A stretch of DNA of 63,188 nucleotides, filler included, from Stramenopiles sp. TOSAG23-2 (lineage: Eukaryota), in the NCBI GenBank assembly GCA_900128395.1. It is 14 parts of 14 records of this genome, joined end to end, with 100 filler letters (N's around TTAATTAATTAA, not from the genome) between each part and the next. Parts side by side here need not be neighbours in the genome. Positions count along the whole stretch, not along the records: positions 50,588 to 55,530 come from LT650772.1; 13 more parts are not named here. One strand, given 5' to 3'. Of the stretch, positions 2,060-61,981 are shown piece after piece. The translations under genes and the position numbers were made by a program. The number at the start of each line of letters is the position of its first letter. Positions within the stretch are counted from its first letter, which is position 1. The notes below the pieces were generated by a model, which saw only the letters and a program-made list of their open reading frames with translations, was not told the DNA's origin and ran no database searches.

Positions 2060-4867
2060 TTAACATCCCCCCCCTCTTACATTCTTACCTAAAAGGCGCC
2101 TTCGTCTTGACGACAATTCCAGGCATTCCTTTTTGGATGTATGACCATTTATATTACCACCATTTATATTACCATAATGCATTTGATTGTTTCCGTTAAA
2201 CACTTTATATGTTGTAATTTGGCAATTCATATCCCATTGAAATAGGATTTTTACGCTCTTCTTAATAAACTCTTGAGCTACTTTATTCTTTGTAGTACTT
2301 AGTTTACTAATACATTTACAAAGTTGCAAATTCTTTTTGCAGTCAAATGAAAAACTCATGTCGCTTTTCTTCAAGTCAATCTTACTAAACATATTATCTT
2401 GTTTGCATTCTTCAATATTGGTATTGGACGGTATCAGTTTCCTCCTTGCTTGCTGCCACTCTTTATACGTTTTTTTTGGAGTAGCCAACTGATTTATTGC
2501 TGCAAGTAACCGTCTTCGCCTTGCATTTTTGTCAGTTCTCCCTTTCTTTTTTTTCTTCTTTCGGTTTTTAGATTTCTTCGCCTTTTTCTTACTTTGTTTC
2601 TTTCCTGTCACTTTTTTGCTTGTTCTCCCTTTCTTTTTTTTCTTCTTTCGGTTTTTAGATTTCTTCGCCTTTTTCTTACTTTGTTTCTTTCCTGTCACTT
2701 TTTTGCTTGTTCTCCCTTTCTTTTTTTTCTTCTTTCGGTTTTTAGATTTCTTCGCCTTTTTCTTACTTTGTTTCTTTCCTGTCACTTTTTTGCTTGTTCT
2801 CCCTTTCTTTTTTTTCTTCTTTCGGTTTTTAGATTTCTTCGCCTTTTTCTTACTTTGTTTCTTTCCTGTCACTTTTTTGCTTGTTCTCCCTTTCTTTTTT
2901 TTGTTGGTGTTACCTTTCTTCATTGATTGTTTCTTTCCTGTGTTTTTCTTCTTACTTCGTTTCTTTCCTGTCACTTTTTTGTTTGTTCTCTCTTTCTTTT
3001 TTTTGTTGGTGTTACCTTTCTTCATTGTTTGTATCTTTCCTGTGTTTTTCTTCTTACTTCGTTTCTTTCCTGTCACTTTTTTGCTTGTTCTCTCTTTCTT
3101 TTTTTTGTTGGTGTTACCTTTCTTCATTGATTGTTTCTTTCCTGTGTTTTTCTTCTTACTTCGTTTCTTTCCTGTCACTTTTTTGTTTGTTCTCTCTTTC
3201 TTTTTTTTGTTGGTGTTACCTTTCTTCATTGTTTGTATCTTTCCTGTGTTTTTCTTCCACTGATTTACAAATTGTGTACCTTCTAATAAATTAAAAACGT
3301 TTCCTGCGTTACTTTTGCCATTCTTATCGCTGCCCCAACAAACTACATTGTATTTATTCGTTACAGCACAGCTATGATAGTTACCAACATCTATTTCAAC
3401 ATATTGACCTTCTTTTGCTTTGCCATTATTCCCCGGAGGACGAATTTTATTATTTTTTTTTATCGTACCCCAACATTCTATTTTCCCGGTATCTGTAAGA
3501 CCACAAGTATAATCCATTCGTGTACTAACTTGTATAAATTTTCCTTCTGTTGGTTTTTTCCAAACCCCGTTTGCGGGAGGAAGTTGATTCTCGCTGTTAT
3601 CTCCCCAACATTCGATATATCCTGTGCAGGTTAGTCCACATACATGAGTTTTGCCTGCACTTACTGCTGTAAAAACACCCCCGTTTTTTGCAACCCCTTC
3701 ATTTGGCGGGGTAATATACTTAGCATCACTATTGGGTTTTGACCAACTGAACCAACATTCAATTATTCCCTTATCTGTCAAACCACATGTGAAGTCTCTA
3801 CCAACACTTACTTGAGTAAATTCACTTTTATTGTCTTTTGCCTTACGTGGGTTTGCAGTTGTTCCATCTCTCTGAAAACACTGAATTTCCCTAGCGGTCT
3901 TTGTAAGACCGCAGGCATATTCACTACCAGCGCTTACTTGATAATATGCATTTTTTTTCGATTTTTTATACAGTTTCCTTTCTGCCATTTTGTCACCAGC
4001 CGTGGACTTTTCGTCCCAATACCAACATCTGATATTTCCAAACGTAGTTAACCCACAAATGCTGTTCCATCCGGTGCTTACTTTATTAAACTTGCTGTCG
4101 CTATCGATATATTTGCTATCGATATATTTCCCACCTGTTTTTTTCCCAAAACAAACAATTTTTTCGGTAGGTGTCACAGCACATGTATCTTGAGCCCCAG
4201 AACTAAGTGTAAACATTTTCTCTCCCGCTTTCACTGGTTGGCACGCATTTTTGGCCTTTGCACGCGTTTTTGTTTTTTTAGGCTTTTTTTTACGCGGTGC
4301 TTCTTCTGTAGGTTTTTCGCTTTCTCCTTCTTTAGGTGCTTCCTCACCACCCTCCTCTTTTGGAGCCTCTTCTGTTGGTGCTTCCTCCTTTGGTGCTTCT
4401 TCTGTAGGTGCTTCCTCTTTAGGTGCTTCTTCACGGGATTTTGTTTTTTTAACTGTAACTTGTTTTTTAATTACCATCACGGGCTTTTTTTTACGCTTCC
4501 CCATTCGTAATGCCTTTACACGGGATTTTGTTTCTGTGTTATCTTCCTCGTTTGCTACATTTAAATCATGTTCTTCATCATCTCTTTGTTCTAGAATATC
4601 ATCTTCCGCGTTTGCTACATTTAAATCATGTTCTTCATCAGGTCTCTGTTCTAGATTCTTCTTACTTTTTTCCCGAAGCGTTCCCATGACACGCTTTTTG
4701 TTCGAAACGGTCCTCGACATTTGCGTCGTTTTTTTGTTGCCAATTTCACTATACTGTCGATTAGACATCATTTTTTCATGAGTGCCTAATGCTGCGGCAT
4801 GGTTATTGGCAATTTTTCCAATTAAAGCAAATAGCACAAGCAAAAACACGCAAACAAATCGTGTCAT
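2060..4867 (-). CDS. Secreted protein: signal peptide, acidic/EEAP repeats, RCC1/BLIP-II-like repeats, very Lys-rich repeats, two RRRRLL motifs
   Basis: 935-aa ORF with hydrophobic N-terminus and about seven repeats like QVSxGxxxxCGLTxxGxIECW. Lys-rich units of 34 aa x4 and 29 aa x4. Confidence 0.85.
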   Translation of the reverse strand: MTRFVCVFLLVLFALIGKIANNHAAALGTHEKMMSNRQYSEIGNKKTTQMSRTVSNKKRVMGTLREKSKKNLEQRPDEEHDLNVANAEDDILEQRDDEEHDLNVANEEDNTETKSRVKALRMGKRKKKPVMVIKKQVTVKKTKSREEAPKEEAPTEEAPKEEAPTEEAPKEEGGEEAPKEGESEKPTEEAPRKKKPKKTKTRAKAKNACQPVKAGEKMFTLSSGAQDTCAVTPTEKIVCFGKKTGGKYIDSKYIDSDSKFNKVSTGWNSICGLTTFGNIRCWYWDEKSTAGDKMAERKLYKKSKKNAYYQVSAGSEYACGLTKTAREIQCFQRDGTTANPRKAKDNKSEFTQVSVGRDFTCGLTDKGIIECWFSWSKPNSDAKYITPPNEGVAKNGGVFTAVSAGKTHVCGLTCTGYIECWGDNSENQLPPANGVWKKPTEGKFIQVSTRMDYTCGLTDTGKIECWGTIKKNNKIRPPGNNGKAKEGQYVEIDVGNYHSCAVTNKYNVVCWGSDKNGKSNAGNVFNLLEGTQFVNQWKKNTGKIQTMKKGNTNKKKKERTNKKVTGKKRSKKKNTGKKQSMKKGNTNKKKKERTSKKVTGKKRSKKKNTGKIQTMKKGNTNKKKKERTNKKVTGKKRSKKKNTGKKQSMKKGNTNKKKKGRTSKKVTGKKQSKKKAKKSKNRKKKKKKGRTSKKVTGKKQSKKKAKKSKNRKKKKKKGRTSKKVTGKKQSKKKAKKSKNRKKKKKKGRTSKKVTGKKQSKKKAKKSKNRKKKKKKGRTDKNARRRRLLAAINQLATPKKTYKEWQQARRKLIPSNTNIEECKQDNMFSKIDLKKSDMSFSFDCKKNLQLCKCISKLSTTKNKVAQEFIKKSVKILFQWDMNCQITTYKVFNGNNQMHYGNINGGNINGHTSKKECLELSSRRRRLLGKNVRGGGC
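2530..3260 (-). repeat. Coding tandem repeats, 87 bp x4 and 102 bp x4
   Basis: GTTCTCCC recurs at 2535, 2622, 2709, 2796 and 2883. TTGTTGGTGTTACC recurs every 102 bp from 2901. Confidence 0.95.
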
Positions 4868-4972
4868 GTTTCTTGTAAGAAAGTTAAAAATTATTATCTA
4901 TGCAACGTCGACGTACGTATTATCCAATGACAACCCAGTAGCAATGTAAGGAGCCGTCACTGGTAACTGCAC

Positions 4973-5072
4973 NNNNNNNNNNNNNNNNNNNNNNNNNNNN
5001 NNNNNNNNNNNNNNNNTTAATTAATTAANNNNNNNNNNNNNNNNNNNNNNNNNNNNNNNNNNNNNNNNNNNN
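4973..5072. other. Artificial contig linker (first of 13)
   Basis: N44-TTAATTAATTAA-N44 gives stops in all six frames. Others start at 10042, 15110, 20171, 25230, 30285, 35339, 40392, 45441, 50488, 55531, 60574 and 61882. Confidence 0.99.
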
Positions 5073-5096
5073 TATATAATACAAAATATAGCAAAG

Positions 5097-8000
5097 ATGG
5101 GAAAACTTTTTAGTTCAATTGGTTTACCAGGACAAAATATGAATATGCAAAGAAGAGAAAATATTGAATTTGATGATAATCCCTACCACGTTAGTGTAAA
5201 AATAAGGAGTGAAGATAGGGAAAATACTTTTCGCCTAACATTTACAAATGTGCAAGAAAAATCATTTCCCAAAGCTTCGCTTTCAAAATTAACTTATTTT
5301 GACGATCGTCCAAAACCAGATGGTAAAATTGAATTGCTTCCTGAATCGAAAATGAATGGAGCGTTTACATTTTTAAGTGACGGGGGAAATGGAAGAGGAT
5401 GGGTTAGTGGATCGAAAGATGTGGAAGGAGGCTTTGGGCATGGTCGATTCATTGAAGATGCACTTGGAAATAAAGATATTCGTTATATGTCCGCGGAACA
5501 GTTGGAAATCTACCAGGAAACGTTAGACGAGAACAAAATATCCCCCGATGATGCACTTGGCGATGAGGTATGTCTTGCAATTGATATGGGAAGTCCATTG
5601 AGAGAAATTCCCAGATATAAATTGAATCCTCTGTTAATACGCCGACGCAAAACAGATACATGTTGCCTTTTTATTTTGTTTCTGTTTTGGGTTTTTATTT
5701 TTTTTGTTTCAAAACATGCCATTGAATATGGGGATACCAATCGTTTACTATTTGGTGTTGATTCCCTTGGCAATACGTGTGGTTCTACTAACAGTGAAGG
5801 ATCAAAACTTGGAGTAGATTTGACAAATGAAAAATATTTATGGTGGCCCGATAGTTCCAATCAACCTAGATATATGATGTGCATAAGTAAATGTCCTGGC
5901 GTTGGAGATTTAAATTCTACTACATATACAGATTATATGGTAAAAGTAATGGATCAAAATGCACCGATAAAAACATACATTGTGCAAACAGCAACAACAT
6001 CAGTACTAAATCGTTGCATCCCAGAGGATGGTGGAGAAAATCTAAAAATTGGTAATGATTTGATAGTTTTAGCAGATCTTTTAAATGGATGGAAAACCAT
6101 CCTTGTATCAGGTAGCATTGCGTTGATTTGTGGATTTACCTGGTTAATGCTCATCACACGGTTTCCAAGAATAGTTGTAACATGTACTGTATTTGGAACA
6201 TTTATGACTGCTTTAGGTATCGCAGCTGGTCTAGTATTGATTGCCTATCCTTCCACTAGGTCAATTGCAAAAAATGTTGTTGATCCAACAGCATCCATAT
6301 TTACCATGGTATCTTTAATTGCTTTGTTTTTATTTACATCAACTTTTTTTTATCGATTTTGTCGTAAAAGAAAGCTTGCGAAATATGCATGGCCAATTAT
6401 GGATGAATTATCACATGCAATTAAACGAATTGGATCAGGGTTTATAATGTATCCTATCATTAATTTTTTTTTATTTGCTGGATTAGGAATTGGCGGGTGT
6501 CTACTAATGGTGCAAATATTAAGTTTAGGAAAAATCAAACAAATTTGTGAATGCCCAAAAAATTCATTGACAAATTGTAAATGCACGCAAGTATTTGAAT
6601 TTGATCCTGATGCTAGATTCTATGCAGTCATTACATTGATTGGTATGTTATGGCATCAGAACATTTTATTGGAATTAACAAGATGTACCATTTCTGGTAC
6701 ATTGTCGGTGTGGTTTTTTACAGATGATGACGAGGAGAGTGGAAAGAAACTATTGCCAATGTTTCCAACATACAAGATGTTTTCAAGAATATTCTGGAAT
6801 CATTTAGGCACAATTGCATATATTGCTTTTATTCGACCATTCCATATGATTCATCAGCCATTGCTTGATTGTATGGACTATAACCGTCGAAAACCAACCA
6901 CTAGTGAATTTCGACGCAAATGCCTCGGCCTTACTCTTTTGAAATGTTGTTGTTGGGATACAATGCAATATGCAAATTGTGATGCAGCACTTGTGCAAGT
7001 TGCACTTCACGGATATCATTTTCGTGAAGCAACTACTGTTGGGGCAAAGCTTTGGATGAGAAATAAACGACGTGTTTATGGAATGCAGTCGTTCATACTG
7101 CTATCTGTACAATTTGGAACGTGTGCCATTTTTCTTTTTTCATGTGCTATTGCTGTGTACACATCAAATAATGCACTAGGTACATCTAGCCCAATCGCCG
7201 TTCTGTTAGTAACAGCTATAGTTGTTTTCGCAATAGCGCGTGCATTTACTATAATCTTTAGTATGGTAACAAAATCGTTTATGTTGAACTTTCTTGAAGA
7301 TGCGGAAAGGAACGGAATGGATGAAGAAGGTTATACTGAAGATGCTCCGTATGTTGCAGGTGGGAAAATAGTACACCCAGGAAAACCAGCAAGTCATAAA
7401 CAGCTTTTTATGCCAAAGAAATTAAAAAAATTATTGGATTCGTTTACCTATTTATTAGATGATCGTCCACCTACTCCAGGCGAAGCGATTCATGAACTTA
7501 TCAAGCATAAGCTAAAAGATTTGACATTAGTGCATTCCAACAGCAATTGTCGATTGATGAGACGATCACATGTTGCGCAAACTACTGATGCTGCCTTTTA
7601 CGATTCTAATAAACCTTGGAGGGTTTCTGCAACAATTCCATATAGACATGAGCAACAACCTGCTGGATCGGTAAAATTATTTGTCCATGAACCGACTAAA
7701 GCAACGAGTTGGTGTGGACTTTTTAAAACGGGGGGATTAAAGGAAGTCAAGCGGGTTCCACAAGATAAAAGGCTAGTAGAAGGTCCATATAATTATGAAT
7801 ATGATTGTGAAAACATCAAAGGAGCTCATCCACATTTATCACCTGAACAACAAGAAGAGCAAAAAATTTCTCGTTTAAGCTTAATGGTGGAAACAATAAC
7901 AGTTAGATGTTCCATTCATCTAATGACAAAAAAAGATGCAGGATTTTTAATGGATGACCCTACTCGGATTAGACCAGTAACGCAGCTTAGTGCTAAGGAA

Positions 8001-20170: not shown

Positions 20171-20929
20171 NNNNNNNNNNNNNNNNNNNNNNNNNNNNNN
20201 NNNNNNNNNNNNNNTTAATTAATTAANNNNNNNNNNNNNNNNNNNNNNNNNNNNNNNNNNNNNNNNNNNNAAGATGGGAAGTGGTCGTGCTGTCTTGTAT
20301 AAAAATTGAAAAAGGACGTGTGTGTATATATGATGTCATATAATGGGTTATGAGATTTAAATAGTGTATGTGTGTGTGTGTGTGTGTGTAAATAGTGGAA
20401 CAAGGAAAAAAAATGTACAATATCTTTTATTTATCTCACACCCCTATGTGTATGTACATCTCATTAAAAGTATTTGTGTGTTTTAATTTAAATTACATTC
20501 AACAATCTTAAAAATTGATAAAAATGTAATTTTTTACTTTTATTCCCCTTCTCTTATTTTTTTAACTTTTTTTACAACAAACTTCACCAACCCACCACAC
20601 ATCAATCTTTTTTTTCTTCTTTTTCGTCATTACAATATTTAGTACTACAAATGACCTATTAGGTGTAATTTTTTACTTTTATTCCCCTTCTCTTATTTTT
20701 TTAACTTTTTTTACAACAAACTTCACCAACCCACCACACATCAATCTTTTTTTTCTTCTTTTTCGTCATTACAATATTTTTACTATTTTATATACACTCT
20801 TCTATTTTGAACACATTAATAAACTAAATAAATTCAGAAGACTTGATTAGCTAAAGAAAAGACTTTCGTATTAATTTTCGTGTGTATCTATACTGAACAC
20901 AAATGTGTCTTATATATACACACACAAAA

Positions 20930-24719: not shown

Positions 24720-25746
24720 ATTTTATATATTATATCCTGTATATAACATCTACACTCTTGGATCTATCTATATATAGGTCGTCTATACTCTTTATATATC
24801 TTAATCTATCCGATACAGGGACGTTCTCCCTGCTATATATATATTTATTATTCAAAATGTATACTATTATGTCAAAATTCTCATCTTCAAAATTCTGATT
24901 CGAGTTCGACGATTCGACGAGTTCGAACTCAAGAAATCCTCGTATTAGTATGAGTATTACTATACGATTTTATTATCCTTTTCATAGAGTATATTAACAC
25001 GGGAATAGCACCTTTTTTTACTCTCTTTTTCTCCATATTTTTTTGAGCAACACACACAACAAAAACATAAATAAAAATAAGAAAATCCGATACAGGGACG
25101 TTCTCCCTGCTATATATATATTTATTATTCAAAATGTATACTATTATGTCAAAATTCTCATCTTCAAAATTCTGATTCGAGTTCGACGATTCGACGAGTT
25201 CGAACTCAAGAAATCCTCGTATTAGTATGNNNNNNNNNNNNNNNNNNNNNNNNNNNNNNNNNNNNNNNNNNNNTTAATTAATTAANNNNNNNNNNNNNNN
25301 NNNNNNNNNNNNNNNNNNNNNNNNNNNNNTAACTCAACAAATAATAATAAAAAAAAAAAAATGTCTATCATCATATCTACATGTAATACCAGTAGTGGTG
25401 GTAGAAATTTATAGACTAGAATATAATATTAATAGTAGTCTATAGATAAAAATATATAAAGCACTATATAAATATATATATATACTCTAACATATGATAT
25501 ATATATTATACACAGCAGAATGGAACAAAAATAAATACCAATTGCTTTACTTATAATTCAATTTTGCATTGTGTGCCATTATTTAATATGTATAATATAT
25601 ATTTATTTCAAATCATTTTTTATTTGAATAATATATATATATACTCTAACATATGATATATATATTATACACAGCAGAATGGAACAAAAATAAATACCAA
25701 TTGCTTTACTTATAATTCAATTTTGCATTGTGTGCCATTATTTAAT

Positions 25747-28700
25747 ATGTATAATATATATTTATTTCAAATCATTTTTTATTTGTTACTTGTATTAACT
25801 ATTACCACTTTTGCTAAAACTGATTTGAATCAAGACCAGGTATTGAAAATTTTATATGAAGCTATTGATTTTCAACAAAATAATAATTTTGAAAAAGCTA
25901 TTGAAAAGTACAATTACATATTACAACGATACCCTAATCATCCTGATGCTTTGCATTTATCTGGTATAGCGCATCATTACATCGGTGGAAGAAAAATAAA
26001 CCATTTAGCAGGCAGTGTTTCTGCAATTTCTCCGAACCTTCTACAAACATATAAAAAAAATGAAAAAATAGCGGAACAATTAGTTCGACAAGCAATTCTT
26101 GTAAAACCAAGTGATTCAAATTTTTACAACACGCTAGGTGAAATAATACGATTAAGTAGTATCAATATGCAACATGTAAACTATAAAGACAGTCAATTGG
26201 GTCGTTTGGAAGAATCCTTAAGTGTGTATCGGAATGGTATTGACGTTCTTATGCCAGGATTTTTGAAAAAGCTTACAAGTAATCCAGTACGAGAATTACA
26301 AATTTACGATATGTTCAATTTGAATAATAATAATAACGATAATATGCCAGAAGGAACTGCAAATACCCCTGATTTGTCAGATTTAATGAAAAATTATGGT
26401 TTAGCTTTAATGCAGACGAAAGATATCGATTATACCGTGATTTATTATGAAAATTTAGTGAAATTGAACCCAAAAAATGTAGATTACCAATTTAATTTAG
26501 CAATGAATCTACGTAGAAAAAAAAACGATGTAGAATATGCCAGGGCATATAATGTATTTAACTATATTGTTGAAAAACATCCAAATATAATATCAGCTAA
26601 AATGCAATTAGCTATTACATGTCAAATGCAAGGTAGAATTGGAGATGCTATAAATATTTATAATGAAATTATTAAAGTCAAAGGAAACGATCATGGAAAT
26701 GATGGTACTGTAAAAATGGATGAATCCTTTGTGCAATCACTAGATGATGTAACACGTCAAACAATCATGGTAAATTTAGGTGCTGCGCATCAAGAAAGTG
26801 GACATTTTCACAAAGCAATTTATTTATATCAACGCAATTTAAAAGAATTACCAAATGATGCAAGGGCTTGGAACAATCTTGGAAGTAGTTTATGGCAGAT
26901 TGGTGATGCTCAAAAAAGTGTAGATGCATATATGAAAGCAATAGATATTGATCCGACGGGAGGTGAGGCATATGTAAATTTAGGTGTTGCGTATTATGAA
27001 TATGGCAACATCGAAAAATGTACAAATGCTTACGAGACGGCTTATAATATAACGAAAAATGACGGTTTATTAATGAGATTGGCTACCATGACATTGCCAA
27101 TCATGACTTCAATGGAACAAATAAAGAAAGATCGCCATCAATTGAAAACAGCAATAATGAAATTATATAATAGGATAATAGACGGAACAAATCCAGTATA
27201 TTTGGACGAACCTGTGAAAGATATTGAAAGAGTTCATTTTTATTATTTATACCATGGGAAAAATGAAATATTTAATCAAATTATGATGTGCAATTTGTAT
27301 TTCAATAGTGCCAAACATGTATTGCCATTTGTTTCAAATTATTTATCATACAAGCCGTACTCACATACGTTGGAGGCATTGAATTTGCCACATTCTGATG
27401 GTAAAATTGTAGTTGGATTTGTCAGCAAATTTTTAGTTATAAATCATGCGCATGGACAATTATTAGAAGGTATTGTACAACATCTAGACCGAAATATTTT
27501 TTATATTGTTGCATTGGTAATTCCAAATCCACAAAATGTATTGTTGCCATCTATTGCCAATAGCGCAGATTATGTAATAAGGCTACCATTTGCATTGAAA
27601 GAAGTGAGAGGTATTATTAGCGATTTAAAATTGGATATTTTAGTGTTTGCAGACATGCTTAGTGAACCATTGACATATTTTATGGGATTAGGAAGTCGAA
27701 TGGCCCCAATTCAATGTCTCTTCTGGGGAAATCCAGTGACGAGCGGTACGCCAGATAACATTGATTATTTTATAACAGGCGAGTGGATGGAAGAGGAAGG
27801 TATGGGAGGTCGACATGATACGTATGATCCTAGGACAAAAAACAATTGGATGGAACGGGAAGGTGAGGATCATAGAATTAAAAAAAAATCCTCGAAAATT
27901 GCTTCTCAATATACAGAACAATCGGTTAGATTACGTGGACAAGGTATTTGGTATGATAAAATTCCTATACCTTTAAATATTAATGATCCATATGGTTTTG
28001 AAACTGTAAATAGTGAAGATATGATTTTACCGTGGCAAAATGAACCAGGCACTTTGACATATATTTGTGCACAATCATTATTCAAATTGCACCCACATTA
28101 TGATACGATAATTCAAAAAATACTAGAAGCGACGCCAAATTCCTATTTGGTATTGCTACAAGGTCGCAGACAAACTTGGACCGAAATGATAAAAACTCGA
28201 ATGAAAAGTACAATGACCAACGATGTTTTCAAACGTATTTTTTTTACCCGTAGAGTTGGAAGTAGCAATGATTATTTAAGAGTGTTAAATAAAGCAGACA
28301 TAATATTACACCCATTTCCATTTGGTGGTAGCAAAACAAGTGCGGATGGGATATTGTTGAACAAACCTACAGTTGTATTAGTCACGGATAAATTGCGCTG
28401 TCGCATGGCATTTAGCTATTTTGTCACTATGGGTATTTATGATACAGTTGTATATACTGAAGATGAGTACGTCCGGAAAGCAGTGGAGCTAGGTTTAAAT
28501 GAAGATTTACGAAATGAAATAGGAAACAAGATGAAATTGCAAAGTCATAAAATTTGGGAAAGGATGGAAGTAATAGATGCATGGAGTCGTTTTTTTCAAA
28601 GAGCATATTTAGGTAGTCGTAGTGGAAATTTTCCAGCATATAATAGAAAATGGAATGGTGAAGTTAAATCAAGAAAAGAATTTGAATCTAATGTGCCAGC

Positions 28701-40391: not shown

Positions 40392-40825
40392 NNNNNNNNN
40401 NNNNNNNNNNNNNNNNNNNNNNNNNNNNNNNNNNNTTAATTAATTAANNNNNNNNNNNNNNNNNNNNNNNNNNNNNNNNNNNNNNNNNNNNAAGAAGATT
40501 TTTTTAAAGATTGTAAACTTTGAATTTTATACGCGTGTATTATAAAGAAAAGAAGGCAATAATATTTGATTAAAATATTAATATTAACTGAATATAATAT
40601 TTATAAATGTATGGAGTTGACTATTAGAGAGGATCCTCTCTAGAGTTGACACATGGCGACTAAAAAGGAGAGGCGAGAGTACGAAAAAGAGAGGGTATAC
40701 ACAACACACTATTTAATACGGCTTCGTACGTACGAGTATTATATTTATTGCTACACAGATTTACGTCGTAAAATATATATTTTTATTTTAATAGCCATTT
40801 AATAATCTGCCGGGCATGCTGGCCC

Positions 40826-42820
40826 AAATCGTTTAATATAAGATATAGGATTATCTTCCAATAATATTATGTATAATTTATCTTACTTATACTCTCTCTT
40901 CTTCTTAGTGATCTATTCCAAGATCTCTCTCTCTGTATATCTCTTTCTATACAGTATATAATACACCATAAGTGTTATTATTGAATTATTGTATCGTATT
41001 CTATAGTATTCGCCTAGTATTACGATAACTCGATAATCAGACTTATAATAAATAATCGATTGGTACTATACAAATAACATGTATTGTGTTCATTTCCATG
41101 GACAAATAATGTTGGTGCTTTACGTATGTATATTGTAAATGTGTTCATTTGTACTTGTACTGTTCATTTTGTCTTAATTATAAACTTATCCAGTTATGTA
41201 TTACTACTTGTGACAGTCTTAAAGTCGCGTTACATTTGGTGCGTCTAAAAGGCTGTCTTACATTACGTATTAGCGCCTATACTATTCTTTAGATATTAAG
41301 GTATATTGGTCGACAGTTTTCATCAATACTTTTCTCCTCCTCAATCTTATAGCATATATATGTGTGTGCGTTTGTGCGGTCTTTTCGTTGGCACATATGC
41401 ATATATACACATTGACTATGTATTAGATTGATATGTATTCATGAAACTGTATTCGACTCGTGATATTGCATCATAATGATTGGTTGTTATTGTAGCGGCT
41501 CATTTATTCTAAAATTAATACTTAATTGTAAACGATTAATTAACGCGATCATAATGATAAACAATGAATTGATTAGTCTATGAATTTGTTTTGTATCATG
41601 CATATTATCTAACAAGAATATTTTAGTATTACTTGGGCAAATATAACATGATTTGATGAATGGGAACGATTCGAAGTAATGCAATCTTCATTTCAGATTG
41701 ATCAAATTTTCTGTCCTATATATTTGTAGACTAACCAGTACAAATATATATTCTTATTTCCGACAGATACGTTTACCCATATAAATGTGCAAAATGGCTT
41801 AGAACATGCGTTCTGCATCAACAGGACTGTTGCCTGTGAAAAAATATTTTGCCATCTCCATGTGTTTCTGAGGTGGTAATGCTTTGGTTAATATGTCAGC
41901 TAAGTTTTTATTAGTATCGCATCTAACTACTATTACTGTTTTATCTTGAACCATTTCTTGGACTAAGAAATGCTTAACAGCAATATGTTTAGTTCTCGAT
42001 GAACATCGTTTACTAAATGCAATTGTTAATGAGTAGATGTCAAAAACAAAAATGTGAAAATTTGAAAATTTTTATACTTGCTAGGGGGATAAAAAGTATT
42101 GGGCCCGTAACCAAATCGTTTAATATAAGATATAGGATTATCTTCCAATAATATTATGTATAATTTATCTTACTTATACTCTCTCTTCTTCTTAGTGATC
42201 TATTCCAAGATCTCTCTCCCAAATCGTTTAATATAAGATATAGGATTATCTTCCAATAATATTATGTATAATTTATCTTACTTATACTCTCTCTTCTTCT
42301 TAGTGATCTATTCCAAGATCTCTCTCTCTGTATATCTCTTTCTATACAGTATATAATACACCATAAGTGTTATTATTGAATTATTGTATCGTATTCTATA
42401 GTATTCGCCTAGTATTACGATAACTCGATAATCAGACTTATAATAAATAATCGATTGGTACTATACAAATAACATGTATTGTGTTCATTTCCATGGACAA
42501 ATAATGTTGGTGCTTTACGTATGTATATTGTAAATGTGTTCATTTGTACTTGTACTGTTCATTTTGTCTTAATTATAAACTTATCCAGTTATGTATTACT
42601 ACTTGTGACAGTCTTAAAGTCGCGTTACATTTGGTGCGTCTAAAAGGCTGTCTTACATTACGTATTAGCGCCTATACTATTCTTTAGATATTAAGGTATA
42701 TTGGTCGACAGTTTTCATCAATACTTTTCTCCTCCTCAATCTTATAGCATATATATGTGTGTGCGATACTATTCTTTAGATATTAAGGTATATTGGTCGA
42801 CAGTTTTCATCAATACTTTT
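40826..42820 (-). mobile_element. Non-autonomous, internally deleted Ty1/Copia LTR retrotransposon
   Basis: 508-bp direct repeats at 40826-41333 and 42221-42728 (junctions at 42113 and 42820). Minus-strand PBS GGTTACGGGCCCA at 42100-42112, PPT TTGAGGAGGAG at 41334-41344, RNase H remnant, and GCCC on both flanks. Confidence 0.9.
41799..42029 (-). pseudogene. Copia RNase H C-terminal remnant (not in the ORF track)
   Basis: Translates LTIAFSKRCSSRTKHIAVKHFLVQEMVQDKTVIVVRCDTNKNLADILTKALPPQKHMEMAKYFF..., containing the Copia RTKHI and ADILTK motifs. Confidence 0.92.
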
Positions 42821-42977
42821 GCCCGGCTGGCACATGCAACATGCATGCCCATATTAAAAATATAATTAATAAAATAATAGAATAAACTAAAAATATAGAC
42901 ATAAATAAGACAGAACCAAGGTAATTATACACCACCACCCTCCACCCTCCGCTTGGTAAAGAATTAGACAACTTATT

Positions 42978-43940
42978 ATGAACCCCCTTAACTACCACCC
43001 AACAGAACTTATAGAACAATTGGAAGAAAAATATATGAGTCATGGTGAGTATAATAATGCAGGCGGACATGATACAATTGAGGCAAATTATAGGCTTCAA
43101 GAACAATATGAACTGCATTGTTTAATGGAATGGAAAAGACGGGAAACAATACACTCATTACAAGCTCAAATGATACAAAACTACAGAGCGCAAAACCAGG
43201 CTCTTCAGGCAGAAGTTGAAGCTCTACGAGCCAATCAAACACCTGATGATGGCGATGTCAACGAAGATGAAGTTGTGATCAATGTTCCAGCTTACGATGA
43301 TGGCGATGTCAACGAAGATGAAGTTGTGATCAATATTCCAGCTTACATAAGCTGTAACATTGAACTCTATCACAATATATGTATACACCCTCATGAGGAT
43401 GTAAGTGATGCTTTAAAATGCGTGGGGAGTAATTTCAAGGCATTACGTGGAATGAATGCAACGTGGAAACAAAAATATCCTGCTTCTCGTAAGAGAACAA
43501 GAACAGGAACAAAGCCACACCGTGGCTTTATAAGCCTAAAAAAAAATGGCAAGGTTGTTTCAACAGTATTATTTAATATTGTTGAAGATGGTATTGTTGA
43601 AGGTGGTAAAGTATACGTCGAAATTTTTAGAGCATGCACAGATAAAGAACATAGAAAAAAAGGTTATATGGGTATTTTATTTTCTATATTACGCTCAATG
43701 GAAATGAAAGATTCTGAATTTCACTTTTTTGCTTGTATTGACAACAAGAGTATCGAATTCTACAAGAACGAAAGAATTTGTTTTGAGAAAAGTACTCGTA
43801 GTACGAAGCCACTTACCGCACTGAACTTTTCAGGTTATGAAGATCACCGGTTGAATCTATATGCAGCAATAGGAGAATGTTGCGAGGCGCAACTTCGTAA
43901 GATTTATGAATATTATATTAAGAATAGGCTAGTGGTATGA
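42978..43940 (+). CDS. GNAT-family acetyltransferase-like protein
   Basis: VVSTVLF...VEIFRACTDKEHRKKGYMGILF (acetyl-CoA motif A-like) and SIEFY. Internal 17-aa duplication DDGDVNEDEVVIN(V/I)PAY. Confidence 0.65.
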   Translation: MNPLNYHPTELIEQLEEKYMSHGEYNNAGGHDTIEANYRLQEQYELHCLMEWKRRETIHSLQAQMIQNYRAQNQALQAEVEALRANQTPDDGDVNEDEVVINVPAYDDGDVNEDEVVINIPAYISCNIELYHNICIHPHEDVSDALKCVGSNFKALRGMNATWKQKYPASRKRTRTGTKPHRGFISLKKNGKVVSTVLFNIVEDGIVEGGKVYVEIFRACTDKEHRKKGYMGILFSILRSMEMKDSEFHFFACIDNKSIEFYKNERICFEKSTRSTKPLTALNFSGYEDHRLNLYAAIGECCEAQLRKIYEYYIKNRLVV

Positions 43941-44112: not shown

Positions 44113-45161
44113 CTACACCAAATTGATCCCTTCATATTCATCGTAACCATATGCTAAATTTGCATTTTGCAATGCTTGCGTCGCAGCACCTTTTAATAAA
44201 TTATCAATCGTTGCTGTTACAACAATATGATTCGTACCATCTATTCATCGTAACCATATGCTAAATTTGCATTTTGCAATGCTTGCGTCGCAGCACCTTT
44301 TAATAAATTATCAATCGTTGCTGTTACAACAATATGATTCGTACCATCACCATTGCCAGTAGTAAAATTACCAACACATGCATAATGTTGTCCAGCATTA
44401 TCTACAACTTGAGGATCATCTAAAATTTTTACCAATGGTTCATTTTCATAATATTTTTCATACATATCGCGTAGTTCATCTGTACCAATTTCTTTATCTA
44501 CAACAGCATTTACTGTCAAATGTATACCTCTAAAATACGATGCAACATGTGGCATAAAATTTACATTATGGCCTAAATGTCTACTAACTTCTTTTTCATG
44601 TATATGATCTGTTAATTTATATGCCATTAAATTATCTTTTAATAAATCAACATCGTTTTTTGGTGATGGTGTTGTACCAGCACCTGAATACCCACTAACA
44701 CCAAATACATATGGAGAAGAATCACTTCTCACTTTAACATTGCTATTTGTATCTAGTAATGGCAATAAAGCTACTTGTGCACCTGTTGCATAGCAACCCG
44801 GATTTGATATTAAACTTGCTTTTTTAATTAAATCGCGATTAACTTCTGGTATACCATATGTCCAATCATCATCGAACCTATAATCAGCACTTAAATCAAT
44901 CATTTTTACACCCGCATCATCTGATAATACATTAACATATGGTTCTGCTAAACCATTTGGTAATGCAAGAAACCATAAATCAACATTTGCATTTTTACAA
45001 TCTTCAGGTGACATATTTGAAAACGTTATTTGTTTTAAATCTTCAAGGCCGTGGCTAGAAATCGTAAACCCTTGTTCTTCTGCTTGTTTTTGAACTATTG
45101 TACCTACGTTTTCACCTATTAAAGAGCGACTACTTGCATGAGTCAATGAAAAACCAGGATG
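44113..45161 (-). CDS. argC: N-acetyl-gamma-glutamyl-phosphate reductase, 5'-truncated in this assembly
   Basis: [35 protein letters not shown] and [13 protein letters not shown] 107-bp duplication (44135-44348) creates the apparent stop at 44241; the natural end is [12 protein letters not shown] at 44113. The N-terminal nucleotide-binding motif is missing. Confidence 0.93.
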
Positions 45162-45625
45162 ACACACAAATTAATTTTTTGCTTTTTTCATGTCAATATC
45201 GTAATATTTTTAACCGGTCCTCCTTTTCTCCCCCTTGTACCTACGTTTTCACCTATTAAAGAGCGACTACTTGCATGAGTCAATGAAAAACCAGGATGAC
45301 ACACAAATTAATTTTTTGCTTTTTTCATGTCAATATCGTAATATTTTTAACCGGTCCTCCTTTTCTCCCCCCTCACTCTCTCTCTCTCTCAAACATCGTC
45401 TTCCATTTTTTTCTTGGTATTATTATTATTATTATTATTANNNNNNNNNNNNNNNNNNNNNNNNNNNNNNNNNNNNNNNNNNNNTTAATTAATTAANNNN
45501 NNNNNNNNNNNNNNNNNNNNNNNNNNNNNNNNNNNNNNNNATGAACGGGAGTAAAAGAAATTTATATAATATATGAGTAAGAGAACATTTTATATACGCA
45601 CACACAAAACACCTCTTTTCCTTTT

Positions 45626-48733: not shown

Positions 48734-49395
48734 TATTGTATTCGATCAAAGTAGATGATAATTAATTGCATTGGCTGCTGTCCAGCTGTGTTTGGAACTA
48801 TAACGGAGTAGTAGCTTTTCATTACATTTAACTTGTTACGCTTTTCTTTAATGTTATGGAAAACATTAAATTGTTCAAAGAATGTATGATGTTTTTGTCG
48901 TTGCTTTTTATTGATAGTATATATTGTAATATTAATAGTATAATAATATAATACATACTATACTACTGTACAAAACTACAAACAAGAACGTATTGATGTG
49001 CTATTAAATTAAAGCTGGACGGAGGCTGGGGAGTGTGAAAAGTGTATTTGTATTTATACAATATTAATAGTATATCCATAGTATTATTTTATCAATAGTA
49101 GTTTTAACTGCTGCTATTTTAATATAATACACTGTTATCTAATATATTTACCTGGTGTGTGATGCCTGTGGATATTACGCGTAGTTCCATCAGCAGAGCA
49201 CCAGAGGTTTCCTTCTTTTCCTCCTGGTAGTGGGGAAAAAAACAACAAACAAACAACATGATAATAACAACACAAGCAATAATACCACATCATAGCAAAA
49301 ATATATATACAATAATTATTCGAATACATACATCTTGTTAAAGTACTACATATCTGTATGTGTACAAAAGTAAATATATAACAAGATTAAAAATC

Positions 49396-50004
49396 ATGGT
49401 GTACTGCAATTTTAAACATATCATGGTAATAACGTTGGCATTTCTGTATGCACAGCCAACTTCTAGCCGCCTTAATCAACAACGACTAGGACCTGGGCCT
49501 GAATGTACAGCTGTAAAAGAAGCAGATAGGACTTGCTACAATGGAAATAAAGTATATATAGCAGCTTTCACAGCAAATAAACTGGCACATGATGGAACGA
49601 TGGGCCACACATATGCTGTTGCGTGGGGAGATCATGAATGGTGTCAAGAATTAGTTGCGAGATTGCCGGAAGCTGAAAATGAAGAGAAATTTAGAACTGC
49701 TTGTGTAGGTATATTTGGTAATGATTGTTGTACACAGTGCCGAACTATTGGCAGACTTTTTGATAGAATAGATATGACTGTATTTCCACCATCCAATGAT
49801 AAGGGTGGCTTAGGCTTTCATTTAGATAATGAAAAATGCCTTGCGTGTATTGAGCGGGAGGAATGCGAAAATCCCCCTCGAATGTCATGGAAGGAACCAA
49901 TGAATGTAGATCGAAAGGAGAAAGCTATGTTAGAACATACTATGAATGATGTATCATTAAGCACTCATAATGGTGGCGATGAGCGTTGGAAAATCAATAC
50001 GTAG
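49396..50004 (+). CDS. Small Cys-rich, probably secreted protein
   Basis: ATG at 49396, hydrophobic IMVITLAFLYA, about 11 Cys in the mature part. Confidence 0.65.
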   Translation: MVYCNFKHIMVITLAFLYAQPTSSRLNQQRLGPGPECTAVKEADRTCYNGNKVYIAAFTANKLAHDGTMGHTYAVAWGDHEWCQELVARLPEAENEEKFRTACVGIFGNDCCTQCRTIGRLFDRIDMTVFPPSNDKGGLGFHLDNEKCLACIEREECENPPRMSWKEPMNVDRKEKAMLEHTMNDVSLSTHNGGDERWKINT

Positions 50005-50695: not shown

Positions 50696-51058
50696 TTAAA
50701 TTTTTTTATTATTATTATTCCATCTTTGCAAAAATTTTTGTGTGTCAATCAACTCTAATTTGCTTTTTAATCTATTATATTCTTTAATACTATTTACATC
50801 AGTTCTTGTCCACCAAGCACTACTATTTGAACTACCTGTTCGAATATCTTCAATAACATATCGACCTACGTTACCATTATTGTTATTATTATTATGCATC
50901 TGCTTTGGACGAATGGCAATATATGTTGTCTGGTTGCCTCTTTTAATGATTTTCAATTTTACACATAGAATATTAGGTTTTTTGAATGTAACAGTTTTTT
51001 TATTACTCTTCGCATTATTATTGTTATTATTTCTCTTACGTTTTTTCGTTTTCACCAT
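50696..51058 (-). CDS. Hypothetical basic protein
   Basis: 120-aa ATG ORF with poly-Asn tracts typical of this genome's genes and an NLS-like KKRKR. Confidence 0.55.
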   Translation of the reverse strand: MVKTKKRKRNNNNNNAKSNKKTVTFKKPNILCVKLKIIKRGNQTTYIAIRPKQMHNNNNNNGNVGRYVIEDIRTGSSNSSAWWTRTDVNSIKEYNRLKSKLELIDTQKFLQRWNNNNKKI

Positions 51059-51932
51059 GGTTATGCTACAGATAAAAGTTTTTTCTCTAGAGGGGGTGTT
51101 TTGAAAGAGGTGAATTTATTAATCACGTATTAATATATAGTTTACCTCCAGGCATCAAGGCTATCTGGCTATGTCGGAAGAAAACGTCTTACATTTGGAC
51201 GACGACCACAGAAGCCAAAAGGCGGCTGGAAGGCCACACAGGAACCAAGGACAAGGTTGGCCCAGCCTCGGCCAGCCAGGCCAGCCCTCCAGCTAGCCCA
51301 GCTAGCAACAAGAACAATTTAAAAATTGGGAAGGACTTGTGACTTGTGTTGTCGTGCTATTACTGTAGTTATAGTGTGCTACGTGTATAATAGTATACGA
51401 GGTATTTATCATATTGATGCCCCCTGTTATCCTTTTTTTTTTTGTATAATTGTTGTAATGTTGTTTACAGTAAGACTTGTGGCATATCTAATCATATTTA
51501 TCACCTATCATAATACCAGGTAGTCTAATTAGTATCTACAATAATATCATCCACACAAATCACAAATATACTTGCCAGCCCGGCCAGCCGGGCCAGCTTG
51601 ATAGCTTGGTACCGTATATTTTAGAATTAATAATAATATACTATATACAGGTGGTATATACAATAATATTATATTCGAATGTATTATCTATAATATACAA
51701 TATGGAATATATATTCAACATATTTTAACATAAAATATATTTATTTATAGTCGTCGTTATATATTATTTACTCCTCATACTGTAGCATATAAACTGTCCA
51801 TACTTACATAAAAAAATCACAAATATAATACATAAATTATTATTATATAATAATTATATATATACACTGTACTAGTCATACATACAATATCTTGTATTAT
51901 TATTGACTTTTTTTTTTTTCTCCCAGTACAAG

Positions 51933-53669
51933 ATGGCAAATTTAGTGAGAGATACTAACAATAATAATAACAATAATAATAACAATAATAATAACAATAA
52001 TAATAACAATAATAATGTGCGACAACATATTGTAAATAATTTAAATGACTTTCAAAATCCAGAAATTAAAAGTACTGGTAGATATCCGCTTGTTGCTGGT
52101 ATTTATTGTAATAGCATAAACCGTTTGAATCCTGGGCAGCCACTAGCACAGAACAATATAATATTGAATGTCTGTAATTTAAGAGGCAACGTCAGGCAAA
52201 TTCACCGCAACGCGTCTATAACAGTTGGAAACTTACGAAATGAACTGGAAGGGCATCCACGTTTAGTCATTGGTAAGCAGGAACATGCGGATGAGACTGT
52301 AATAGCAACTGTTGTCGATCGAGTTACTGCAAGAATCTTAGTCGATGGTCGTCCACGTAGGAATGATATAGAAATGATACCGAATTATTTAGATCAACAT
52401 GAGATAATATCTGTACCATTGTCTGATGTCTCTTCCACAATTAATCATACCTTACGACAATATAAAGGATTGTTAACTAATGATGGCCGTAATAATAATT
52501 TTATGTATATTCATTTTAAAGTATTGAAAAGAGCAATATATGGAAAGGTACATCTTTTTGCTCGAGTTGATCGTGGGCAAGATGGAAGATACCATGTGTT
52601 AAATGGTAGAGGTAGCAAAGTGGCAGTCAAGCAAATCTTTAAACGACAGCTACGACAAATGATTAATGCTGGTAGGGAAATGTCTGAAGACCCATTAAAG
52701 GAAGTTGCAATTATGTTAAGTTTAAGAAGCGGGGAAATCCAGCACCGTAATGTAATGAATGTATTGGAAGTTGGCGAAGATGCAAATAGTATATACATAG
52801 TTTTGCCATTTGCAAATGGCGGAGAGTTGTTTGATACCATTGATCAAGGCGGTGCGCAAGATGAAGATGTTACTGCATTTTACATTAGAAAAATGGCATC
52901 CGGATTAAGTCATATACATCAAAGTGGGGTGTCAATGAATGACATGTCATTGGAAAATACGTTGTTACATACTTTTGATGGGGAGGAAGATGCTGAACCG
53001 ATACTAATGGATTTTGGCATGTCAAATTTTCTTAGAACAGACGATCGTGGTAGGAGAATGAAAAATATAGTTAATAATGCTGGTAAAAAAACATACTTAT
53101 CCCCAGAAGTGTTTGCAAGAGGTAATTACGATGGTGTTTATGCCGATCTTTGGTCATTAGGTATCATTGCGATCATGTTAGCGACTGGATGTCCACCTGT
53201 CGATCAACCAAATATGGCATGTGGCCGCTTTAGGTATATAAGAGATGGTCGAGTATCGGAGTTGTTGAATATATGGCACGAGCAACATAATATACCACGC
53301 CTAACGCCATATTTCCATGATTTTGTGAAACGTCTTTTAATTGCAGATAGACCATGGCAACGACTACCATTAGCAATTGTACTTGAGCATCCATTTGTTA
53401 CTGGCCAAGTAAACCTAGCAGAAAATACCTGGGAAATGTATAAATTTACAATTAACGTGTTCCAAAAGCTTTTACATTTTTCATATTGCATTAACAATGA
53501 CATCGATCTAACAGAGCAAGAACAGCAACACATGGTAAATATTGTCAATCAATTTCGAGTATCAGTCAGAAACTATTCAAATTCAAATGGCGATATAGAT
53601 AATTTAATTCATTGGTGTAATGAAAATTTGACATGTTTTTTCCACGATGATATGCAATTAGTTGTTTAA
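51933..53669 (+). CDS. Ser/Thr protein kinase (CAMK-like) with an atypical catalytic loop
   Basis: AIYGKV, VAVK, MNDMSLEN, DFG, YLSPE and DLWSLG. A polypyrimidine tract plus CAG just before the ATG suggests an upstream intron. Confidence 0.92.
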   Translation: MANLVRDTNNNNNNNNNNNNNNNNNNNNVRQHIVNNLNDFQNPEIKSTGRYPLVAGIYCNSINRLNPGQPLAQNNIILNVCNLRGNVRQIHRNASITVGNLRNELEGHPRLVIGKQEHADETVIATVVDRVTARILVDGRPRRNDIEMIPNYLDQHEIISVPLSDVSSTINHTLRQYKGLLTNDGRNNNFMYIHFKVLKRAIYGKVHLFARVDRGQDGRYHVLNGRGSKVAVKQIFKRQLRQMINAGREMSEDPLKEVAIMLSLRSGEIQHRNVMNVLEVGEDANSIYIVLPFANGGELFDTIDQGGAQDEDVTAFYIRKMASGLSHIHQSGVSMNDMSLENTLLHTFDGEEDAEPILMDFGMSNFLRTDDRGRRMKNIVNNAGKKTYLSPEVFARGNYDGVYADLWSLGIIAIMLATGCPPVDQPNMACGRFRYIRDGRVSELLNIWHEQHNIPRLTPYFHDFVKRLLIADRPWQRLPLAIVLEHPFVTGQVNLAENTWEMYKFTINVFQKLLHFSYCINNDIDLTEQEQQHMVNIVNQFRVSVRNYSNSNGDIDNLIHWCNENLTCFFHDDMQLVV

Positions 53670-60975: not shown

Positions 60976-61175
60976 GTTTGTACTCTTTGATTCGTCTTTA
61001 TGTAATGTGTTGATTTTTTCATCTTGTTGTATTTGTTCTATTTAGTCTTTATATATTTGTAAATTCATTTTTATTCTCAATTTAAATTATTCTTCATGGC
61101 ACACAAAATCGAACACAAATTCAAATTTGATGAATTCAATCAAAACAAGAAGTAGATAAATAATAAAATAGAAAA

Positions 61176-61805
61176 ATGAAAATACGAAAAATACAAAAAA
61201 TTTATACATTGAAATTTTCAACAATCATGATAATGAATGTAATCCATGAACTAATCATCGTCTTGATAGTTCTGTATTATGCAAATGCACAATCTATCTG
61301 TAATGAAAAATGTGAAATGCCATTGACTAATATTATTGTCCAACCTTCATCAACTGGAAAAATATCACCCATTCAACAACAAACATCTTCAGAAAGAATG
61401 GATACACTAAGTAGAAATATCGTATCAGATTCAAGTAGTGATTTGAAAAAGGAACACCAATCATCTCCATTAAATATTGTACTAATTCTAGTTGATGATC
61501 TTGGATGGAATGATCTTGGAAGTTATAATAACCCCGATCCAAAAAAATATTTTTCCCCATTAACACCAAATATTGACGCCATTATTAAAAATGAGAAAGG
61601 AATCAAATTAAAACAAATGCATGTATGGCCCGTGTGTAGTCCTACTCGTGCTGCTTTGCTTACGGGGCGTTATCCGGTAAGAATGGGAGCAAATTCTTTC
61701 GTTGCTAATGCTGCATATAAATTTTGGATACCAGCTAATGAAACATTAATATCTAACGTTTTGAAAAGTCATTTTAATTATAAAACACATGCAGTTGGCA
61801 AATGG
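61176..61805 (+). CDS. Arylsulfatase (formylglycine-dependent, S1), first exon
   Basis: NIVLILVDDLGWND, CSPTRAALLTGRY and THAVGKW, followed by a GTACGT donor at 61806 and CTAAC near 61852. Confidence 0.92.
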
Positions 61806-61981
61806 GTACGTAAATTCTATTCCCCTTAATGTATAATAAAGGATATCCTCTCTAACAACACATCACTCATTCATAAGATATNNNNNNNNNNNNNNNNNNN
61901 NNNNNNNNNNNNNNNNNNNNNNNNNTTAATTAATTAANNNNNNNNNNNNNNNNNNNNNNNNNNNNNNNNNNNNNNNNNNNN

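Follow-up and report, generated by a model that had tools for sequence, protein, structure and literature searches.

We identified an internally deleted LTR retrotransposon of the Ty1/copia type, whose LTRs begin with AA and end with TT, in a 63,188-nt stretch of DNA from Stramenopiles sp. TOSAG23-2 (hereafter, the window). The unusual ends are the firmer result of this analysis; in addition, a leaky preference of the family for insertion at GGGCC-W-GC is plausible from three insertion sites. The window is a chain of pieces, mostly about 5 kb long, with N spacers between them. It contains eukaryotic genes, its GC content is about 32%, and the host is presumably an uncultured marine protist: among the sequencing runs that matched it best, two small data sets sharing one organism label came first, and most of the others were marine metagenomes. 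Two further ORFs were observed on its plus strand: an orphan, secreted-looking ORF with no Pfam match (49342-50004), and an ORF resembling the N-terminus of a sulfatase by eye (61167-61829).

As shown in Table 1, the element is arranged on the minus strand in the order 5' LTR, primer-binding site (PBS), short leader, deletion junction, end of RNase H, 3' non-coding region, polypurine tract (PPT), and 3' LTR. It occupies positions 40826-42820, and its junctions with the flanking GCCC read TGGCCC/AAATCG at 40825/40826 and CTTTT/GCCCGG at 42820/42821. The two LTRs showed 0 differences over 508 bp, indicating that the insertion is very young. The internal deletion junction was located at approximately 42014. 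Sequences of runs X3 and X15 extended beyond this position into upstream RNase H codons, so that less deleted copies exist. No joints corresponding to the extra pieces of the 5' LTR were detected in runs X1 or X2, in which the only joint was 42110 to 40824, and the LTRs of another insertion on contig L001 were plain, without either piece. The extra pieces are probably assembly artefacts. Exact local duplications of 116-156 bp were also observed at 1491-1752, 20525-20779, 24808-25229, 25471-25785, and 45098-45371 of the window, and these may be artefacts of the same kind. Apart from the insertion in the window, runs X1 and X2 yielded only a shallow 429-bp contig that joins the LTR internally at 41015 with unrelated sequence; this contig would be a chimera or else derive from an LTR copy that is truncated or interrupted.

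Table 1 Features of the element and of the two intergenic regions (positions in the window).
Feature	Position	Strand	Remark
Target-site duplication, left copy GCCC	40822..40825	.	
3' LTR	40826..41333	-	508 bp; ends AAAAGT...CGATTT
PPT GAGGAGGAG	41334..41342	-	Adjoins 3' LTR
Copia RNase H, C-terminal 71 aa and stop	41799..42014	-	100% identical to P0001
PBS, half-tRNA type	42100..42112	-	12/13 vs human tRNAiMet complement
5' LTR region	42113..42820	-	Full copy 42221-42728, identical to 3' LTR; extra pieces of 108 and 92 bp
Target-site duplication, right copy GCCC	42821..42824	.	
GNAT acetyltransferase ORF	42978..43940	+	PF00583, E 7.5e-5; 157 bp from element
120-aa ORF, divergent from kinase	50696..51058	-	ATG 51058
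Second CCAGC cluster	51262..51306	+	One full unit (51271-51285); 212 bp upstream of minus-strand ORF
Two overlapping GCCAGC-CNG-GCCAGC units, unoccupied	51574..51597	+	51583-51597 = reconstructed empty site
Protein kinase ORF	51933..53669	+	PF00069, E 2.9e-34

At 12 of 13 positions, the PBS was identical to the complementary sequence of the anticodon-stem region in human tRNAiMet (excerpt of PMC1797187). A host tRNA was searched for and none was found. From this match, the element would be primed by a half tRNAiMet annealing directly after the LTR. The leader just past the PBS (42083-42101) was complementary to the PPT and the start of U3 (41326-41345), which suggests a possible pairing of the two RNA ends. 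Separately, the two ends of the LTR (40826-40870 and 41289-41333) formed an imperfect inverted repeat of about 40 bp.

The same ends, AAAAGT...CGATTT, were found in both insertions with two flanks, namely those of the window and L001, and in both cases the PPT and PBS lay inside the LTR bounds and the duplication outside. The boundary can be moved by 1-2 bases, and no shift yields TG or CA. Hence, the TG...CA termini that are usual but not obligatory in Ty1/copia elements are absent from this family. A terminal CA is regarded as the recognition signal of integrase, and DDE integrases normally need CA ends; a Copia family whose clean insertions have TT at each 3' end is a natural test of how flexible the CA rule is. 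The duplication measured 4 bp in the window, and L001 had one of 5 bp (AATAG); in Ty1/copia, its length is expected to be family-specific and mostly 5 bp. The end types named for plant Copia elements in the excerpts searched are TGCT, TGGA, TACA, TGTA, TGGT, TACT, TATA, TGTT, TCCA, and AACA. AA..TT ends were absent from the types named in this plant literature, our base being excerpts of PMC5659011, 10.1101/137141, PMC9804982, PMC12477314, PMC6317226, PMC1797187, and PMC5408687 together with PMC8515867, with Repbase, most subscription journals, and supplementary lists outside its scope. Judged by its sequence, the family would therefore be a Copia variant that is new against the end types named there. 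Such protist families could be overlooked by detection programs that rely on TG..CA or on a preset list of end motifs.

Proteins of the family were also investigated. P0003 (900 aa), which falls in the same 90% cluster as P0001, contained a Copia reverse transcriptase (RT; PF07727, E 6.7e-45). The Ty1/copia hallmarks found were thus a Copia-type RT with RNase H, and two direct LTRs with adjoining PBS and PPT. The approximately 350 residues preceding the RT of P0003, the longest protein of the family, gave no Pfam match above the cut-off and included no protease or integrase; this N-terminal region also did not match a profile built from 47 N-terminal regions of Copia proteins, which in a control detected the integrase of P0016 at E 9e-67. 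Atlas matches, including hints of gag, were all <0.9, and the single-sequence fold of P0003 was unusable (mean pLDDT 35). No protease or integrase was found in any copy of the family, and no full-length polyprotein was present among 6,527 candidates, with none close in the best 150 representatives and two short fragments elsewhere. Three different upstream sequences were joined to the same point of the ORF in L001, P0003, and P0155, suggesting that P0003 arose by deletion. Several deletion derivatives retained a segment ahead of the RT that has the pattern C-x4-C-x10-C-x2-H and a basic tract (8001-8220 of L001; residues 275-345 of P0003); this segment may represent the tail of an integrase that is otherwise missing. 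L001 additionally carried a 522-aa ORF (4032-5600, minus strand) that contained (L/F)D(S/T)GA twice, had no Pfam match, and resembles a doubled retrotransposon-type protease. A quick tree built from 42 RT-RNase H rows of unnamed proteins placed the family in a clade with P0165 and P0014 (SH-aLRT 99), and the families of both carry integrase.

Removal of the element and one GCCC gave a reconstructed empty site. As the initial annotation had reported, a 15-mer in this site is the exact reverse complement of 51583-51597; this was the longest exact match across the reconstructed junction elsewhere in the window (15 nt, minus strand), and the reconstructed sequence was identical whether the duplication was read as 2, 3, or 4 bp. 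The flanks of the insertion and of the kinase lie, as annotated, on unrelated contigs, being in different 5-kb pieces with N spacers between them. The spacing between 51597 and the kinase ATG, 335 bp, was reproduced, and that between the element and the GNAT ATG, previously given as about 155 bp, was refined to 157 bp. That such a match is unexpected by chance was borne out as well: five matches with ≤3 mismatches were obtained against 0.04 expected, and 0 of 100 shuffles reached five. Exact identity over 15 of 15 bases adds little once the motif common to both sites is recognized, because only its middle spacer base varies. No contig spanning the insertion site without the element was detected in the four sequencing runs compared; coverage by run X3 near the site comprised 40492-40699 and 40722-40792, with the junction itself outside. 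The empty allele is thus a putative one, reconstructed from element-bearing sequence. A 215-bp contig of run X3 departed from the window at 40792 and continued with sequence matching the start of an argC-like ORF (45161/45298), as would be expected of a chimera or of a haplotype lacking the element together with the GNAT gene and further sequence.

The motif shared by the empty site and 51583-51597 is GCCAGC-CNG-GCCAGC, a direct repeat with a 9-bp period. Full units were found at 51271, 51574, and 51583 in addition to the reconstructed site, and the spacers of these three kinase-side copies were CAG, CCG, and CGG, respectively. All three unoccupied copies were located between the kinase and the 120-aa ORF, and since the two ORFs are divergent, 51059-51932 is a bidirectional intergenic region. 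A poly-pyrimidine tract and CAG preceded the kinase ATG; a 3' splice site is likely there, which makes the distance to the ATG a weak measure at this gene. Among the 20 upstream regions examined, the full repeat was present in two, and CCAGCC was present in four against 0.43 expected (p 8e-4, uncorrected and, as some regions overlap, not proof). With the full repeat in only two of these regions, GCCAGC-CNG-GCCAGC is a candidate regulatory motif and not an established general promoter element.

Other insertions of the family were then compared. Alignment of four of the 19 listed sequencing runs to one LTR and its surroundings yielded one new flank, in record 7 of run X15. Over 918 aligned bases, this record had 20 differences, half of which (10) fell in the LTR (2% diverged); the alignment entered the window flank by 5 bases and then gave way to 1,055 bases of unrelated sequence. 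In the outward direction from the same LTR end, the flank was GGGCC-T-GC in X15 and GGGCC-A-GC in the window; that is, seven of the first eight bases were identical. The X15 insertion is represented by a single flank on a contig with a depth of 5.55. It was counted as a separate insertion because an orthologue diverged by 2% should give differing LTRs in the window, where the pair is identical, and because the LTR depth in run X2 (1,230-1,252) equals that of the flank plus the internal region (564 + 654), i.e. two identical copies. It is therefore unlikely that the two represent the same event. The X15 flank was also considered as a primer-site variant, which was rejected as the 5' leader (42014-42110) is absent from the record.

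A metagenome scan provided the third insertion, on the single contig L001 (L002 is the same contig and was not counted). Its two 508-bp LTRs were identical (0 differences), differed from the window LTR at seven positions, and enclosed a different internal deletion; the insertion lies about 285 bp past the stop codon of one gene and 268 bp before the next ATG. The collection of flanks had been set beforehand as the test of homing to a promoter motif, with AT-rich flanks to count against it, and at L001 the outcome was adverse: the flanks were AT-rich, the duplication was AATAG, and no GCCAGC repeat was found across the 10.7 kb of the contig. The sole match in a scan of genome contigs, L003, had no further similarity to the element and was taken as chance. 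In a viral sequence collection, the pattern scan gave 0 matches and protein scans found no relatives. A fixed spacing to the word GATAGC (17-22 in L001 and 18-23 in X15) was rejected, as it is absent from the window flank and the word occurs four times in 22 kb of non-coding DNA against about six expected by a hand estimate.

Over the three sites, GGGCC-W-GC was present at two and absent from one. In non-coding DNA, GGGCC occurred at 4 and GGGCCWGC at 2 of 40,282 strand positions, and the very few GC-rich patches, in one of which the window insertion sits, accounted for 45 of 19,796 positions (0.23%). Of the 19,649 non-coding positions, 652 had a 15-mer twin in another piece; the subset with a GC content of ≥60% comprised 558 positions, of which only 16 had one, all belonging to the pair of the empty site and 51583-51597. 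A leaky bias is favoured by the 4-bp GGGC duplication inside the repeat between identical LTRs, and by the start of the X15 flank with a word as rare as this. It is weakened by the number of sites, by X15, which could be chimeric, and by L001, which bears no resemblance to the motif and whose duplication differs in length; moreover, the motif was picked after the window site had been seen. Plant Copia duplications, described as highly variable in sequence in the excerpt of PMC6317226, also count against a bias, and a role of integrase is weakened because the family enzyme was not found, P0003 being without one. The earlier proposal that the family may home to a promoter motif was thus partly supported: the second insertion at GGGCC-W-GC and the position of the window site in a rare GC-rich patch speak for it, whereas the AT-rich, motif-free L001 and the few upstream regions with the repeat speak against it, and strict homing is refuted.

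Considering these results, we tentatively propose, at somewhat less than an even chance, a half-tRNA-primed Copia family with AA...TT ends that is mobilized in trans, its integrase presumably having a leaky bias for GGGCC-W-GC as seen at two of three sites. The element would be a very recent, internally deleted copy moved by enzymes supplied in trans, and the integrase would accept TT ends and prefer GGGCC-W-GC leakily. In this AT-rich, gene-dense genome, such words would be rare outside coding DNA and reside mostly in GCCAGC-CNG-GCCAGC repeats before genes, and insertions in coding DNA would presumably be purged. Because the word is rare outside genes and mostly within the upstream repeat, the element could land in an upstream motif without reading promoters and without tethering, the promoter location being a by-product; 51583-51597 would then represent a copy of this host motif that carries no insertion.

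An absence of any targeting is unlikely, yet it survives best among the alternatives. Selection would leave intergenic copies, the window hit on a shared host repeat would be chance, and X15 would be a coincidence or a contig artefact. The AT-rich L001 site with its canonical 5-bp duplication agrees with this, all three sites are seen after selection, and most intergenic positions of a gene-dense genome are probably near an ATG. However, two rare events are needed, namely an insertion into the GC-rich class, 0.23% of positions, and an in-register match over 5 bases at about 1e-4 per site. Less likely again is tethered promoter targeting similar to that of Tf1, Ty1, Ty3, or Ty5, by a host factor on GCCAGC repeats or by open promoter chromatin, with local sequence secondary. 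Both sites of known context are upstream of an ATG (157 bp and 268 bp), the repeat is clustered in a divergent intergenic region, and non-TGCA plant Copia elements are nearer genes in the part of 10.1101/137141 consulted. Against tethering, the insertion lies inside the motif itself, in register with it, rather than at some constant distance away, which would fit direct read-out of sequence better, and L001 is without the motif, as are 18 of the 20 upstream regions.

It is improbable that this Copia lineage, having dropped its CA ends, either reaches GGGCC-W-GC sites before genes by base-pairing of its half-tRNA primer or moves with no integrase encoded by itself; if true, this would amount to a novel mode of target selection and entry for an LTR retrotransposon. 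Marginally less credible is the specific route in which an unremoved half-tRNA primer, or a copy of it, pairs with the target and host repair finishes the joint. Such primer-guided or integrase-independent insertion would account for the missing CA and for duplications measuring both 4 and 5 bp, and P0003 is without protease or integrase. The three 3' flanks resembled the tRNAiMet complement past the first six PBS bases, ranking in the top 0.03%, 2%, and 2% of 39,771 non-coding 11-mers, but this test was post hoc with the human tRNA as reference, and the six intervening primer bases are missing from the junctions. Clean ends with duplications in both two-flank insertions, the integrase of the sister families, and the likely derivation of P0003 by deletion also argue against it. 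Finally, strict homing to GCCAGC-CNG-GCCAGC, suggested by the exact 15-mer match, is the least probable reading, as the motif-free L001 contradicts it unless that copy came by another route and X15 agrees at only seven of the first eight bases.

If the GGGCC bias holds, the family would be a rare sequence-biased Copia, convergent with errantiviruses, which would tie odd ends to target choice, and its young insertions would lie in a candidate regulatory repeat of an uncultured plankton species. Tf1 is targeted through a protein tether. Ty1, Ty3, and Ty5 are likewise targeted through tethers (PMC5408687, in part), and all four resemble this family in inserting upstream of genes, whereas neither a tether nor a fixed distance is established here. 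Priming by half tRNA-Met is described for Osser, Bryco, and part of Gymco-II in the excerpt of PMC6317226, and for the genus Hemivirus. By its 12/13 PBS match, the family would be of the half-tRNA type as in Hemivirus, with which it shares the Copia RT (PF07727), RNase H, LTRs, PPT, and a PBS to internal tRNAiMet directly after the LTR; it differs in its AA...TT ends, its 4- and 5-bp duplications, and the lack of protease and integrase in any copy found. Non-canonical ends also occur among plant Copia elements, which often lie near genes; the texts consulted name Tos17 (TGGA), AtRE1 (TATA), TARE1 (TACA), TGTT and AACA families, and lotus types. The named types keep the first T or the final CA, whereas the present family loses both dinucleotides and its host is a marine protist. 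Phygy elements of Physcomitrella are LTR elements that also have a short GC-containing insertion preference, NCGN (PMC6317226, in part), but are Ty3/gypsy elements with a different motif. Drosophila errantiviruses (the gypsy, ZAM, and Idefix subgroups) have AGT/AnT ends and a target bias for TATA, CGCG, or ATAT according to the portion of PMC5408687 available, and this precedent for combining such ends with sequence-biased targets favours a similar reading of our family, whose LTRs begin with A and end with T and whose putative bias comes from two of three sites. Errantiviruses are Ty3/gypsy elements with palindromic targets, in contrast to the Copia RT found here and the proposed non-palindromic, leaky bias for GGGCC-W-GC; neither a Ty3/gypsy-type pol nor an env ORF was seen, the RT being PF07727. 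The likeness would therefore be convergence, and by analogy, errantiviruses appear to be the nearest functional parallel to this family.
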